Positions 57,164 to 62,296 are shown, counted from the stretch's first letter. The stretch: DNA of 64,000 nucleotides from Halobacteriovoraceae bacterium (GCA_963719505.1 CAVRCF010000001.1:192001-256000); one strand, 5' to 3'. The notes: generated by a model not told the origin, from the sequence alone. Numbers and translations: made by a program.

Positions 57164-57994
57164 TTGAAAAATATTTGGGTTCCCCTATCGGGGCAAGTGG
57201 CGCAACAAAGAAAAGTTGAAACCATTGCCAATAATATTGCAAACGCAAATACTCCTGGTTTCAAAAAAGATCGCTTAACATTTAAAGAACACTTAACGGC
57301 TCTAGATAAGGGTCTTGAAGATATCGACATTCCAAGAGAAGACTGGTCTCCCGATGATTTCTATAAAACTCAAGGAGCCCAGAACTCTCATGTTAAAGTC
57401 GACGGAAGTTACACTGTCCACGAACAAGGAAGACTTGATCCAACAAATAATCCCCTGGACTTTGCTCTTCACGGCAAAGGCTTTTTTGAAGTTTCTACTC
57501 CTCAAGGAATTCGTTATACAAGAAAAGGTAATCTTACTGTTTCAAAAGAAGGTGAGCTCATTACCGACAGCGGTTTCAAGCTTTTGGCAAAGTTAGAAAC
57601 TAAAGCCTCTGACTCTGAGGCAATTGATAAAAGTGATATTGAAAAAAGATTTATAAAACTTCCTGAAGGCGCAAGAATATCTGTGTCGAGAGAGGGAGAG
57701 ATTTTCAACAAAGGCGCCCTGGTTGGACGAATGTCAATTGTTGAATTCAGTGATGTTAATGCCATTAGGAAAGAGGGCAACTCACTTTATATAAATAATG
57801 ACGAAGCAAACTTAAAGCGTGAAAAGGTCGCTACAAGCGTCAATCAAGGCTTTATCGAAGGCTCAAATGTAAATGCCGTTCAGGAGATGTCGGAACTTAT
57901 AAGAGCCCACAGACACTTTGAAAATATTCAAAAAGCAATTAGTACATACGACAGTATCTCTGGAAAAGCTGTTAACGATATCGCTAAATTTTAG
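57164..57994 (+). CDS. flgF: Flagellar basal-body rod protein FlgF
   Basis: TTG start after aggagga; IANNIANANTPGFK, TNNPLDFAL.GKGFF, YTRKG, QGFIEGSNVNAV. Confidence 0.92.
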   Translation: MKNIWVPLSGQVAQQRKVETIANNIANANTPGFKKDRLTFKEHLTALDKGLEDIDIPREDWSPDDFYKTQGAQNSHVKVDGSYTVHEQGRLDPTNNPLDFALHGKGFFEVSTPQGIRYTRKGNLTVSKEGELITDSGFKLLAKLETKASDSEAIDKSDIEKRFIKLPEGARISVSREGEIFNKGALVGRMSIVEFSDVNAIRKEGNSLYINNDEANLKREKVATSVNQGFIEGSNVNAVQEMSELIRAHRHFENIQKAISTYDSISGKAVNDIAKF

Positions 57995-58016
57995 TGACAT
58001 CCATAAGGACAAATAA

Positions 58017-58871
58017 ATGAAGCAAATTAAAATTCTACTTTTTTTCTCATTCGTCGTTCTCTTCTTTAGTATTGAAGCTAACGCAATGATAAGGGCCCTC
58101 AATACCGCTGCGACAGGAATGAGTGCACAGGAGTCGAATGTTAATACTATCTCTAACAATATTGCCAACGCCAATACCAACGGCTACAAAACACACCGAA
58201 CAGAATTTGAGGACCTAACTTATCAAACAGTAAGAGAAGCCGGAGCTCGTTCATCTTCAGGATCCATGTACATGGTGGGACAGCAAGTTGGGAGTGGAGC
58301 GAGAGTTTCTGCAACGAGAAGAATTCATAAAATGGGATCTCCCCTTGCAACGAATAATCCCTATGACTTAATGATTATGGGGGACGAAGGCTACTTTGGT
58401 GTCCAAGTTGGAGACGAAATTCAATTCACACGAGATGGCTCTTTCACAGTTGATGCTCAAGGTGTTCTCAAAACCAGAGATGGTCACCCACTGGTACCCT
58501 ACGTAACAATTCCACCCAATACAAAAAGTTTAAATATTGCCAGTGATGGAAAGATTCAAGCCTTTCTAACCTCACAAACAGAACCCATAGAACTTGGACA
58601 AATTCCTGTTTTTGTCTTCGTAAACCCAGCTGGTCTTATGGACCAAGGTGGAAATCTTACCAAGAAGTCGACGGCAAGTGGTGAGCCAATTCAATTAATA
58701 GCTGGGACACAGAATGCTGGAGCAATCCAACAAGGATACCTTGAATCCTCTAACGTCTCTATTATGAATGAGATGACGGGTCTAATTAAGGCACAAAGAG
58801 CTTATGAGATGAATTCAAAAGTTATGGGTGTAGCAGATCAGATGCTTCAAACGGTTAATAATATAAGATGA
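58017..58871 (+). CDS. flgG: Flagellar distal rod protein FlgG with a 23-aa signal-peptide-like extension
   Basis: Canonical MIRALNTAATGM..Q...ISNNIAN.NT.GYK...EFEDL.YQ begins at 58086; FTRDGSF; QGYLESSNV...AQRAYEMNSK. SD aaggac precedes ATG at 58017. Confidence 0.95.
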   Translation: MKQIKILLFFSFVVLFFSIEANAMIRALNTAATGMSAQESNVNTISNNIANANTNGYKTHRTEFEDLTYQTVREAGARSSSGSMYMVGQQVGSGARVSATRRIHKMGSPLATNNPYDLMIMGDEGYFGVQVGDEIQFTRDGSFTVDAQGVLKTRDGHPLVPYVTIPPNTKSLNIASDGKIQAFLTSQTEPIELGQIPVFVFVNPAGLMDQGGNLTKKSTASGEPIQLIAGTQNAGAIQQGYLESSNVSIMNEMTGLIKAQRAYEMNSKVMGVADQMLQTVNNIR

Positions 58872-59734
58872 TAAAAAAACTTTTAATCTCTACTTTACTC
58901 CTTCATTGTTTTTCAAGCTTTGCTTGTCAGATAACTTCTTATCCTCAAATTATTAAATTAAACAAAGTCCTCGATGACTCAATCATTAAAAGTTCAGATT
59001 GTGATGATGAGCAAACACAGATGTTTATTCAACTTATTTCAGGGGCTGATGGAGAACTAACATCTAGTCACCTCTCTCAAATCTTTAAATCTGAATTCAA
59101 AAAGGAAATGACTATTTCCCCAGGAAAGATTGAAGTGAAGAGTGTTAAAGATGTCCTTGTAGACTTGGTTCAACTCCCAAGCTCTTTAGTTTTTTCAACG
59201 ACGACTAGTCTCTATGATAAAGGGAGCCTTAATCTTGAAGGGACAAGTACCCTCAATGCAAGTTGTGCCAACTGCGAATCCGCCGGTGAAAAAAACATTA
59301 AAGTCTCCTTGGACAACCAAACGATTTGGTTTTCAACAAAGCTTCTTACCAAAAGAGTTGCATTCATCGCCACAGAAAGTATTTCACCTTTTCAATCAAA
59401 GCTTTCTCAAGATCAATTTTATGAAAAAAAAATATTTGACACAGGGAATACTCACCTATTTCGCGATATGGAAAACATTCGGTTTTATCGCCCTACCCGC
59501 CATCTTGAAAAGGGAAAAGTTTTAAATGTATCTGACTTTGTTCCAATGACAATTGTAAAACCGGGTCAAAAAGTAAAGGTACTCCTTAAAGGAAAAAGCA
59601 TCTCTCTCAATAGCACTGCACTGGCTAGGCAGGGTGGAAAAATTGGACAAATTATTGATGTCTATAATCAAAAAACAAATAAAAAAATATCGGGACTTGT
59701 GATCGATTTCAATACGGTAATGGTTAACTTATGA
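58868..59734 (+). CDS. flgA: Flagellar P-ring chaperone FlgA
   Basis: Signal peptide; C-terminal IVKPGQKVKV...ALARQGGKIGQIIDVYN..TNKKISG.V; between flgG and flgH. Confidence 0.85.
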   Translation: MIKKLLISTLLLHCFSSFACQITSYPQIIKLNKVLDDSIIKSSDCDDEQTQMFIQLISGADGELTSSHLSQIFKSEFKKEMTISPGKIEVKSVKDVLVDLVQLPSSLVFSTTTSLYDKGSLNLEGTSTLNASCANCESAGEKNIKVSLDNQTIWFSTKLLTKRVAFIATESISPFQSKLSQDQFYEKKIFDTGNTHLFRDMENIRFYRPTRHLEKGKVLNVSDFVPMTIVKPGQKVKVLLKGKSISLNSTALARQGGKIGQIIDVYNQKTNKKISGLVIDFNTVMVNL

Positions 59735-60480
59735 AAATACTTATTTTAGCGACACTTTTTCTTTTTACCTCATGTGCCTCTTACGTCAATAGGATGCATA
59801 GACAAATAGATCACGAGGAAAGAGTGGCAGCTGGATATCCCGCAAGACCTGCTCAAGTCCCTTATAATCGCTATCAAGCCGCCAATGCCAGAGGCATAAA
59901 TAATCCTGTTACTCTTGGTGGTGGGGCAAGGCAAAGCACGAGAAACACGCCAAACCTTCCTCCACAAAACCAAAGAGACTTTGATGGTTACGGAAAAAGA
60001 AGAGTGACTGCTAACGACCTTAAGGATAACGAACAAAGTGGAAGTCTATGGACTGGAAAGCATTCTGAGAGCTTTCTCTTTGTCACCAACAACATAAAAA
60101 GAGCTGGAGATATCGTTATTGTCGAGGTTTTGAATCCACTTAAAGAGACAATTCAAGAGGAATTAGAAAGAACGTTCCCGGTCGCCCCGCAAAAAACGAA
60201 AAAAGGTGAAAAAGCTGAAGAGAAAAAAGAAGCCCCTGCGGAAGAAGTTGCCAAGGGCGAAACTGACGAGAAAAAAGTCTATGATAAGATATCTACTCAA
60301 GTAATTGAGGAGATCAACAAAGATTACCTCCTAGTCAGAGGAAGAAAAGAGATTATGTATAAAACGAGAAGAAGATTTATAGAATTTCAAGCTCTCGTTT
60401 CTAGAAAAGATATTTCAAACGATGACGCCGTACAATCGTCAAAAGTTCTTGAACCTAAAATTTCAGTATTGAGGTACTAA
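59731..60480 (+). CDS. flgH: Flagellar L-ring lipoprotein FlgH (divergent)
   Basis: Lipobox LFTSC; GSLW, GDIVIV, LLVRGRKEI, V.RKDIS.DD.V.SSKV; synteny. Confidence 0.85.
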   Translation: MKILILATLFLFTSCASYVNRMHRQIDHEERVAAGYPARPAQVPYNRYQAANARGINNPVTLGGGARQSTRNTPNLPPQNQRDFDGYGKRRVTANDLKDNEQSGSLWTGKHSESFLFVTNNIKRAGDIVIVEVLNPLKETIQEELERTFPVAPQKTKKGEKAEEKKEAPAEEVAKGETDEKKVYDKISTQVIEEINKDYLLVRGRKEIMYKTRRRFIEFQALVSRKDISNDDAVQSSKVLEPKISVLRY

Positions 60481-60482
60481 AA

Positions 60483-61487
60483 ATGAAAAACATCCTTACC
60501 CTAGCCGTTCTTATTGTTTCTCTTAATGCTCTTGCGGCAAATAGGCTCAAAGATATCGTTTCGATAAAAGGTGTTCGAGATAACCCTCTTATTGGATACG
60601 GTCTAGTTATAGGACTTAACGGTACTGGTGATGGCGGTGGTGAAGTAACAAACTCATCCCTTCGAAAGATGTTTCAAACTCTTGGGCTTGATGCTCCAAC
60701 TGAGGTCAGTTCAAAAAATGTTGCGGCGGTAATCGTCACAGCAAAACTTCCTCCCTTTGGAAGAATAGGTCAAAAGCTTGATGTTACAGTCTCTTCGATT
60801 GGGGATTCAAGCTCCCTTGCTGGCGGAACTCTTCTTGTGACTCCCCTAAAAGGCGGAGACGGCAAGGTTTATGCCGTTGCCAATGGAGCTCTTTCCATCG
60901 GTGGACTAACTCAAGGTGCAAAGTTTGCAACAACAGGTGCGATCCCAAGTGGAGCGACTATAGAGCAGGAAATAGCTCTGTCATTTGATAAGAAAAAGTC
61001 GATTAGACTATCACTCAATAGACCTGACTTCACGACAGCGGCAAGAGTCGTTAAAACGATTAATGAAAACTTAGGTGGTCTTTTTGCTAGTGCATCAGAC
61101 TCTGCGACGATAGACCTTATTATTCCAACAAACTACGAAAGAGAAATCGTTAATCTTATAGCAATCATTGAAAACTATAGAGTGAACCAAGATCAAAAAG
61201 CTAAGATTGTCATCAACGAGAAGACCGGAACTATTGTTGCCGGAGGAGATGTCACTCTAAATCGCGTGGCCATAAGTCATGGAGACCTGACTATTGAGGT
61301 CGGAGATGCCAATGATAAAGGTAAAGATGGGAAAAAAGGTTCACTTTTCATGATAGAGCAAAAAACCACACTAAAAGAATTGGTCAATGCTTTGAATGCT
61401 ATTGGGACAAATCCGGACGATTTAATCTCTATTTTTCAAACACTTAAGACGAATGGGGCATTAATTGCCGATATCGAATTCATCTAA
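60483..61487 (+). CDS. flgI: Flagellar P-ring protein FlgI
   Basis: RLKDI..IKGVRDNPLIGYGLVIGLNGTGD, KNVAAVIVTA, PDFTTA, INEKTGTIV. Confidence 0.96.
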   Translation: MKNILTLAVLIVSLNALAANRLKDIVSIKGVRDNPLIGYGLVIGLNGTGDGGGEVTNSSLRKMFQTLGLDAPTEVSSKNVAAVIVTAKLPPFGRIGQKLDVTVSSIGDSSSLAGGTLLVTPLKGGDGKVYAVANGALSIGGLTQGAKFATTGAIPSGATIEQEIALSFDKKKSIRLSLNRPDFTTAARVVKTINENLGGLFASASDSATIDLIIPTNYEREIVNLIAIIENYRVNQDQKAKIVINEKTGTIVAGGDVTLNRVAISHGDLTIEVGDANDKGKDGKKGSLFMIEQKTTLKELVNALNAIGTNPDDLISIFQTLKTNGALIADIEFI

Positions 61488-61602: not shown

Positions 61603-61971
61603 ATGAACCAAATAAACAAACTTCCAAATTTACCAATTAAGCAAGAGACAGGTCAGACTGCCAAATACAAAAACGTCCCTAAACCCTACTTAGATGTAGC
61701 GAAAGGAATGGAAAAGCAGTTTATTAGTTATATGATCAGTCAGATGAATAATTCAGTTAAGTCTGAAAATGAAGACAGTAGTGCCCAGAAGTACTACAAG
61801 GGCTTAATGGATAATGAAAGAGCCGAAATTATGGCCAATACAAAAAATGGAATCGGCATGAAGGATTTAGTACTAGACCAAATCCTACCAAGCCACCTAA
61901 AGCAGCCTGCAAATGTTCAAGCTGCTGTTAAAAGATATCAGCATGAGGCTGACTCCAAAGGGGAGATCTAA
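61603..61971 (+). CDS. flgJ: Short FlgJ (rod-binding domain only)
   Basis: AKGMEKQFISYMISQM...YKGLMDNERAE.MA...GIGMKDLV; no muramidase domain. Confidence 0.8.
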   Translation: MNQINKLPNLPIKQETGQTAKYKNVPKPYLDVAKGMEKQFISYMISQMNNSVKSENEDSSAQKYYKGLMDNERAEIMANTKNGIGMKDLVLDQILPSHLKQPANVQAAVKRYQHEADSKGEI

Positions 61972-61972
61972 A

Positions 61973-62296
61973 ATGAGTACAATTGACACTAGAGCAAACT
62001 TTTTTCCACGTTCTAAAACAGCACAAGCTGAGAGGGCTCAGGCCAAGTCAGCAGCTGCGATGAAGAGAAATCCTTTTGAAAAGACTGCTGAAATTAATTC
62101 AAGTACTGCAAAGGATGCAAAGGTCTCTATCCCTGAGAAGATAAGAGATTTTTCAAGGATTAAGAAGGCGGTCGATATGGCTCCAGAAATCGATAATTCA
62201 GATAAAATTGCGAGCCTAAAAGCACAAATCCAAGCGGGAACTTACCAGCCAGATTACGATGCTCTCGCAGATAAAATTTTAACAACTGAATACTAA
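61973..62296 (+). CDS. flgM: Anti-sigma28 factor FlgM
   Basis: C-terminal DKIASLKAQIQAGTYQPDYDALADKIL; likely start MSTID at 61973 after the aggggag SD. Confidence 0.9.
   Translation: MSTIDTRANFFPRSKTAQAERAQAKSAAAMKRNPFEKTAEINSSTAKDAKVSIPEKIRDFSRIKKAVDMAPEIDNSDKIASLKAQIQAGTYQPDYDALADKILTTEY

Follow-up and report, generated by a model that had tools for sequence, protein, structure and literature searches.

The window analysed here is a 64,000-nucleotide stretch of DNA from a Halobacteriovoraceae bacterium (GCA_963719505.1, CAVRCF010000001.1:192001-256000), which carries a tightly packed flagellar operon comprising flgF, flgG, flgA, flgH (overlapping flgA), flgI, a FlgJ-like gene, flgM, flgN and flgK. 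Positions are counted from the first nucleotide of the window and all features given lie on the plus strand. The gene of interest is flgG, encoding the distal rod protein FlgG. Its open reading frame (ORF) occupies 58017-58871 and specifies 284 amino acids, beginning MKQIKILLFFSFVVLFFSIEANA and continuing from an ATG at 58086 with MIRALNTAATGM. Residue 24 of the ORF aligns with residue 1 of the solved Salmonella FlgG chains (5wrh, 7cgo and others), and the mature protein of 261 amino acids, with its stop codon, is accordingly placed at 58086-58871. The 23 residues in front of it end exactly at the native N-terminus and have the layout of a Sec signal peptide cut by signal peptidase I: a positively charged n-region, MKQIK (58017-58031; net charge +2, from K2 and K5), a hydrophobic h-region, ILLFFSFVVLFFSI (58032-58073), and a c-region, EANA (58074-58085), in which small residues at -3 and -1 belong to an A-N-A where signal peptidase I is predicted to cut, between 58085 and 58086.

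The upstream ATG at 58017 directly follows an in-frame TAA (58014-58016) and is preceded, at a distance of 7 nt, by a Shine-Dalgarno-like AAGGA (58005-58009). There is no Shine-Dalgarno-like sequence before the internal ATG at 58086. The stop codon of flgF (TAG, 57992-57994) is separated from flgG by 22 nt if the upstream start is used, as against 91 nt with the internal start. An earlier note on this DNA, made from the sequence alone, had described a FlgG with a Sec-type extension fused before its canonical N-terminus, a ribosome-binding site before the upstream ATG but not before the internal one, and a neighbouring FlgF (57164-57994) devoid of any such extension; all three observations hold.

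Apart from its N-terminus, the protein is an ordinary FlgG. It scores above the cut-off of the FlgG equivalog model TIGR02488 (295.7 bits vs 252.75), the match beginning at ORF residue 27, while the match to NF009456 begins at residue 24. The domains Flg_bb_rod (PF00460), LlgE_F_G_D1 (PF22692) and Flg_bbr_C (PF06429) are all present above their cut-offs, and the gene context is the usual one, with flgF upstream and flgA, flgH and flgI downstream. The mature part aligns end to end with the canonical protein of Salmonella (PDB 5wrh, 7cgo, 7bin; E-value 8e-61), which shares the three Pfam domains, the gene neighbourhood and a pass of the equivalog model, and the alignment is gap-free across the N-terminal region, including residues 41-45. 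The canonical protein differs in that it starts at Met1, has no cleavable signal, is exported by the flagellar type III apparatus and has FEDLL at residues 41-45, whereas the protein of the window has 23 extra residues and FEDLT at these positions (mature residues 41-45, 58206-58220).

By the accepted rule, the axial proteins of the flagellum (rod, hook, junction and filament) are exported by the flagellar type III system and assemble at the distal tip after passing through the central channel, and only rings and accessory parts use the Sec route. A FlgG that used Sec would be the first exception among axial proteins. The conservation, translation and motif evidence described below suggests, at the level of sequence, that the FlgG of lineages with the extension has switched to the general Sec route.

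The distribution of the extension was determined by searching for FlgG in 41 relatives, 237 genomes of the family (225 with a match; 222 when a second query was used) and 401 of the phylum (347 with a match). The 134 loci obtained were reduced to 123 genomes with one locus each, by dropping two loci (L006, with its match cut by a contig end, and L032, near a contig end) and nine duplicates, and 29 outgroup loci were added. This gave 152 genomes, 117 from the family and 35 others. An extension was called present where there was an in-frame start at least 12 codons upstream and a mean Kyte-Doolittle hydropathy of at least 2.0 over 7 residues. There are 74 extended genes by this definition, in 73 of the 117 family genomes and in one of the 35 outgroup genomes of the phylum (G033), and 78 FlgGs lack the extension. 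At the genus level, 40 of the 65 family genera have the extension and 25 do not; none is mixed, and with G033 there are 41 extended groups of genus rank. The extensions are 15-31 residues long, with a median of 20. The comparative test proposed in the earlier note has thus been run, and the relatives keep an in-frame hydrophobic extension with small residues at -3 and -1, free of stops and frameshifts.

G033 is the sole genome of another family in the data set. Its FlgG (loci L028 and L135) has the extension MKSYLVIGVFITLMAFDALA followed by VGRAL, with GTG at the old start. The extension is absent from the 29 nearest fetched relatives of G033 in other families, and its origin there is probably independent. 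A cross-bacteria sample of 80 FlgG loci from many phyla was also compiled, of which 79 were analysed, one at a contig end being left out. Three of these loci have a signal-peptide-like extension; their titles read Bacteriovoracaceae, Bdellovibrio or Bdellovibrionales, and their identity to the FlgG of the window is 57-64%. The remaining 76 have none.

Several lines of evidence indicate that the extension is a translated part of the gene. Of the 74 extended genes, 65 have a Shine-Dalgarno match of 4 nt or more in front of the upstream start and just 3 have one in front of the old start; of the 78 genes without extension, 60 show such a match before their canonical start. In genomes that lack the extension, the frame stays open for 0-16 codons ahead of the canonical start and offers no start codon there, and the canonical start has its own Shine-Dalgarno sequence. 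In 17 of the 74 extended genes (14 genera) mature position 1 has lost its start codon (ATT, TTA, CTT, CAA, GTT, GTC, GCT, GCC, AGC, ACA and TCG are found instead), and six genes have no ATG, GTG or TTG among their first six mature codons, their mature proteins beginning VIRALN, LSRALN (twice), QIRALH, STRALN and TLKALD. Met is kept at mature position 1 in 56 of the 74, although initiation no longer requires it and other lineages have I, L, V, Q, A, S or T. In a public protein collection the 284-residue form is present and the 261-residue form absent. In two loci (L008 of G019 and L022 of G012) flgG, read from its upstream start, begins within the final codons of flgF but in a different frame, so that the genes overlap by some 17-20 nt, an arrangement that fits translational coupling of the long form.

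The extension is also under selection. Of 16 within-genus pairs, 12 allowed the ratio of non-synonymous to synonymous substitution rates (dN/dS) to be computed, which is 0.03-0.45 for the extension and 0.006-0.07 for mature FlgG; in the remaining four pairs dS of the extension is saturated, with dN at 0.08-0.37. Comparison of the window with its closest relative (86% identity) shows 11 extension codons with synonymous differences only and 3 with non-synonymous ones. That the extension is translated and selected can be regarded as virtually certain. A fortuitous open frame or a mis-called start, with translation beginning at 58086 and the preceding 69 nt being a T-rich spacer that happens to read as hydrophobic, would draw on the facts that the stretch is indeed T-rich, that T-rich DNA encodes Phe, Leu and Ser, and that there is a weak promoter-like match at 58006-58033. 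This explanation is rejected as exceedingly improbable, given a frame open in 73 family genomes, dN/dS below 0.5, a relocated Shine-Dalgarno sequence and the old start lost in 17 genes. An internal promoter within the extension was considered separately: the weak match just mentioned is the only one, and since the scan found 5 sites where 3.5 were expected it was not taken as evidence. The window scan found no terminator in the extension.

Constraint on the rest of the protein bears on what the extended FlgG does. A single FlgG-class match (E<=1e-40) is present in 224 of the 225 family genomes with a match, so the extended protein is the only FlgG of its genome. FlgG might have been recruited to a different periplasmic structure, with another protein taking over the rod, and this would remove the difficulty of assembling a rod from the outside. 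It is a very unlikely explanation, with no direct support, as the single copy, the retained position between flgF and flgA-flgH-flgI, the low dN/dS of the mature part and the score above the FlgG equivalog cut-off all speak for a protein that is still the rod subunit.

Signal peptides usually conserve properties rather than sequence, and this is the pattern seen here: the extensions are highly diverse between genera and what is conserved is a set of properties. The net charge of residues 2-9 is at least +1 in 68 of the 74 extended genes, and in every one of the 74 the longest stretch free of D, E, K, R, N, Q and H measures 7-20 residues. Position -1 is occupied by A (47), S (9), G (8), T (3) or C (2) and is small in 69 of the 74, and position -3 is small or aliphatic in 68. 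A basic n-region and small residues at -3 and -1 are the hallmarks of a peptide that inserts into Sec and is cut by signal peptidase I on the outer surface of the inner membrane. A gene for signal peptidase I is present in the genome (TIGR02227, 174.1 bits vs a cut-off of 47). Lipoprotein and twin-arginine (Tat) signals were ruled out, as the 23 residues of the window contain neither a lipobox cysteine nor a twin arginine. From these features the extension is likely to be a working Sec signal peptide that is cleaved off.

The second body of evidence concerns a motif by which early flagellar subunits are recognised at the export gate. According to the available passages of PMC8983047 and PMC9307174, these subunits dock at FlhB by a short hydrophobic motif with a conserved Phe, which fits a hydrophobic pocket in FlhB. 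In FlgD the motif is FLTLL (residues 36-40), the motif deletion in FlgE covers residues 39-43, FlgB requires F45 (near-normal secretion of FlgB being obtained with aromatic residues only), and mutations in the FlhB pocket stop secretion of FlgG and FlgE (same passages). The alignment gives FEDLL, residues 41-45 of the solved protein, as the counterpart in Salmonella FlgG. In the window the corresponding FEDLT keeps F41, but the final hydrophobic residue has become Thr, and the pattern F-x-x-x-hydrophobic is lost.

Position 41 is F in all 78 FlgGs of the phylum sample that lack the extension. In the 74 extended FlgGs it is F in 41, S in 10, M in 9, T in 8 and I in 6, so that F41 has been replaced in 33 of the proteins and in 14 of the 41 extended genus-level groups. 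Position 45 is likewise hydrophobic in 78 of 78 without extension, and is T, H, S, N, G, A or K in 16 of the 74 with it. One or both positions are degenerate in 19 of the 41 extended groups. Within this set of genomes, only FlgGs with the extension show decay of the docking motif. Of the 79 loci of the cross-bacteria sample, 78 have F at position 41 and one has Y; at position 45, 78 have a hydrophobic residue and one has A. Outside the extended lineages just two departures were seen, both in metagenome-assembled genomes: FETLA in a Sphingomonadaceae genome (L238) and Y for F in an uncultured bacterium (L207).

FlgF provides an internal control. It keeps F-x-x-x-(L/I/M/V) in 112 of 112 genomes, including every genus whose FlgG has lost the Phe; the count covers genomes with the FlgF N-terminus on the fetched locus, and in 13 of them, with A in place of G before FK, the motif was read by eye. 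The FlgF of the window has an intact FKEHL. Neither it nor the FlgJ-like protein of the window has an extension of the kind seen on FlgG, and there is none on FlgB, FlgC, FliE, FliK, FlgD or FlgE of the same genome (locus L165), in which FlgB and FlgE show F-x-x-x-L motifs.

The association between extension and motif decay was placed on a FlgG gene tree, built with FastTree without the motif columns, with changes assigned by parsimony. Every change, 11 at position 41 and 10 at position 45, is assigned to a branch on which the extension is reconstructed as present. Such branches make up 48.4% of the tree length, and the probability of this outcome by random chance is 0.484^11 = 3e-4 for position 41 and 0.484^10 = 7e-4 for position 45. 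In an IQ-TREE tree of 96 rows the family forms one group (100/100). Well-supported branches force at least four changes of the extension trait on the FlgG gene tree. The genus of the window and g11, both extended, lie inside a 100/100 clade with g50, g51 and g40, all three without extension, and this clade is itself nested in larger supported clades of genera without extension. The extension thus occupies a second region of the tree in the lineage of the window, which shows motif decay of its own (T or G at position 45 in g1, and T in one genome of g11), with none in the sister genera. Gain and loss of the extension cannot be told apart on the gene tree without a rooted species tree.

Two alternatives would keep FlgG, wholly or in part, on the type III route. 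In the main rival, the extension is an enlarged hydrophobic type III signal, strong enough to make the FlhB docking motif dispensable. This accounts for motif decay, and it agrees with the available parts of Bryant et al. (PMC8983047), in which losing the hydrophobic N-terminal signal hurts export more than losing the docking motif and the signal must sit at least about 19-30 residues from the motif, a spacing that the extension respects. However, a type III signal needs neither a basic n-region (present in 68 of 74) nor small residues at -3 and -1 (68 and 69 of 74) placed at the native N-terminus. If left uncleaved, some two dozen hydrophobic tails of 20 residues each should block the rod channel, which is narrow and lined by the N-termini of FlgG, and we know of no protease that acts there. 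The idea of an enlarged signal is thus considered unlikely.

In the other alternative two isoforms are made, a long one exported by Sec and a short one, from the internal ATG (58086 in the window), exported by type III, so that both routes would supply the rod, at least in lineages that, like that of the window, retain the ATG and the greater part of the motif. It would explain why ATG is so often found at mature position 1 (56 of 74) and why F41 persists in 41 of 74, the window included. Yet a Shine-Dalgarno sequence of at least 4 nt stands before the internal codon in 3 genes only, 17 have lost that start and 6 have no start nearby. Moreover, lineages in which the Phe was replaced by S or T often keep the ATG, as with AESEDLLYE in genus g12; because the ATG is retained despite loss of the motif, retention of Met does not track competence for type III export. 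Dual isoforms are accordingly quite unlikely.

The preferred explanation is export by Sec, and it can be set out as a series of steps. Translation starting at 58017 gives a FlgG precursor of 284 residues, which would be targeted to the Sec translocon and cross the inner membrane through it. Cleavage by signal peptidase I after Ala23, at A-N-A, would leave a mature protein with the normal residue 1 of FlgG. Once in the periplasm, FlgG would extend the proximal rod (FlgF) by polymerising on it from outside, rather than arriving by the central channel of the type III system. Docking at FlhB would no longer be needed, which would relax selection on the gate-recognition motif and leave it free to decay. 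This would be the reason for the motif decay observed. The earlier note's suggestion that this FlgG may be delivered by Sec has gained support from the conservation of the extension, the relocated Shine-Dalgarno sequence, the loss of start codons and the motif decay, from which we infer export, cleavage and assembly from outside. The full model, in which FlgG is exported by Sec and assembled from the periplasmic side with the type III route dispensable, is favoured with modest confidence on this comparative evidence. A wider version is more tentative and falls just short of an even chance: in most genera of this family of predatory bacteria the whole distal rod would be made of Sec-delivered subunits added at its tip from the periplasm, with at least four switches of the trait and erosion of the motif at each gain of the signal.

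A number of points weigh against export by Sec. The signal-peptide anatomy was scored by simple rule-of-thumb criteria devised for this analysis. ATG is commoner at mature position 1 than would be expected of a freely varying residue, so that an internal start or a structural role is conceivable, and there is a weak promoter-like match at 58006-58033, from a scan that gave 5 sites where 3.5 were expected. We infer the position of the docking motif in FlgG from homology and from passages on FlgD, FlgE and FlgB, and loss of the motif is no proof that the type III route was abandoned. An independent-pairs test of extension against motif decay gave a median p of 1; only three supported pairs differ in the trait, which leaves the test without power, and changes per branch were counted instead. 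The backbone of the IQ-TREE tree is poorly supported (32 of 93 inner branches are under 80), so that the extended branches form few regions of the tree and a clade effect is not fully separable. To our knowledge there is no precedent for an axial flagellar protein that assembles from the periplasmic side. Lastly, a rod cap, for which the FlgJ-like gene at 61603-61971 is a candidate, might obstruct assembly from outside.

Should export by Sec be correct, a core axial part of the flagellum would need no delivery through the central channel, rod subunits could assemble from the outside, and the role of the rod cap would come into question. The family would also constitute a natural experiment on export signals, with related genera that do and do not have the signal, motif decay only where it is present, and FlgF as the control.

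Among known systems, the closest in location are FlgA, FlgH and FlgI, which use Sec universally and ancestrally and assemble in the periplasm around the rod. Their genes adjoin flgG, and their signal peptides are of the same style as the extension (for example MKNILTLAVLIVSLNALA in FlgI). Unlike FlgG they are ring or chaperone proteins and not axial, and the signal on FlgG is confined, in the sample, to one family and one other genome. The FlaA sheath protein of spirochaete filaments resembles the proposed FlgG in that it is exported by Sec and joins an axial flagellar structure from the periplasm. FlaA coats a core that was built by type III export, however, and does not itself belong to the axial protein family with its conserved terminal helices. 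As an early type III substrate (PMC8983047, PMC9307174, in the passages available), FlgG belongs to that class in all other sampled lineages, and the protein of the window keeps F41; the class, as these passages describe it, has neither an additional n-h-c peptide bearing an A-x-A site nor a decayed motif.

Two papers that mention FlgG should be noted. In the available text of PMC5167687, FlgG of Candidatus Liberibacter asiaticus is listed as having a predicted signal peptide and as PhoA-positive in E. coli, without comment and among predictions that include plainly cytoplasmic proteins. That text analyses neither the conservation of the peptide nor the motif. A comparative study from 2026 of a related genus (PMC13147790) notes FlgG, in the passages available, only as present. 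The full-text literature, supplementary files excluded, yielded no paper in which a signal peptide on a rod protein, FlgG or other, is described as part of flagellar assembly, the table entry for Liberibacter being the sole mention. The protein and the signal type are each well known; their combination, and the change of export route that it implies for an axial protein, appear to be undescribed.

Upstream of flgG, the flgF gene scores 194.7 bits with TIGR03506 and 177.4 bits with TIGR02490, vs a cut-off of 178.5 for the latter. Downstream, flgA (58868-59734; TIGR03170, 60.5 bits) encodes the P-ring chaperone with its own signal peptide, and its start overlaps the flgG stop codon. The gene at 59731-60480, in the position of flgH, encodes a lipoprotein-like product (MKILILATLFLFTSC...) that has weak NCBIfam matches (best E-value 4e-9) and scores 19-36 bits with the L-ring families, vs cut-offs of 247-410; it is a divergent FlgH, the L-ring lipoprotein. 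The P-ring gene flgI (60483-61487; NF003676, 359.3 bits) again has its own signal peptide. It is followed by the FlgJ-like gene (61603-61971), for a short rod-binding protein of 122 residues that consists of the rod-binding domain alone (PF10135, 28.2 bits), without a hydrolase domain. The ORF listed for flgM (61913-62296) overlaps this gene by 59 nt, from which it follows that flgM probably starts at a later Met.

Two minor observations concern other genomes and loci. Five family genomes (G147-G151, of genera g64 and g65, 88-99% complete) gave no match to FlgG, and may be lineages without flagella; other flagellar genes were not searched in them. On contig C3 of the genome to which the window belongs, between fliJ and fliK (locus L165, 8120-8650), there is a gene for a protein of 176 amino acids with a signal peptide, MKQIIILLAMIVLFKTHA, the N-terminus of which resembles the start of the FlgG extension.

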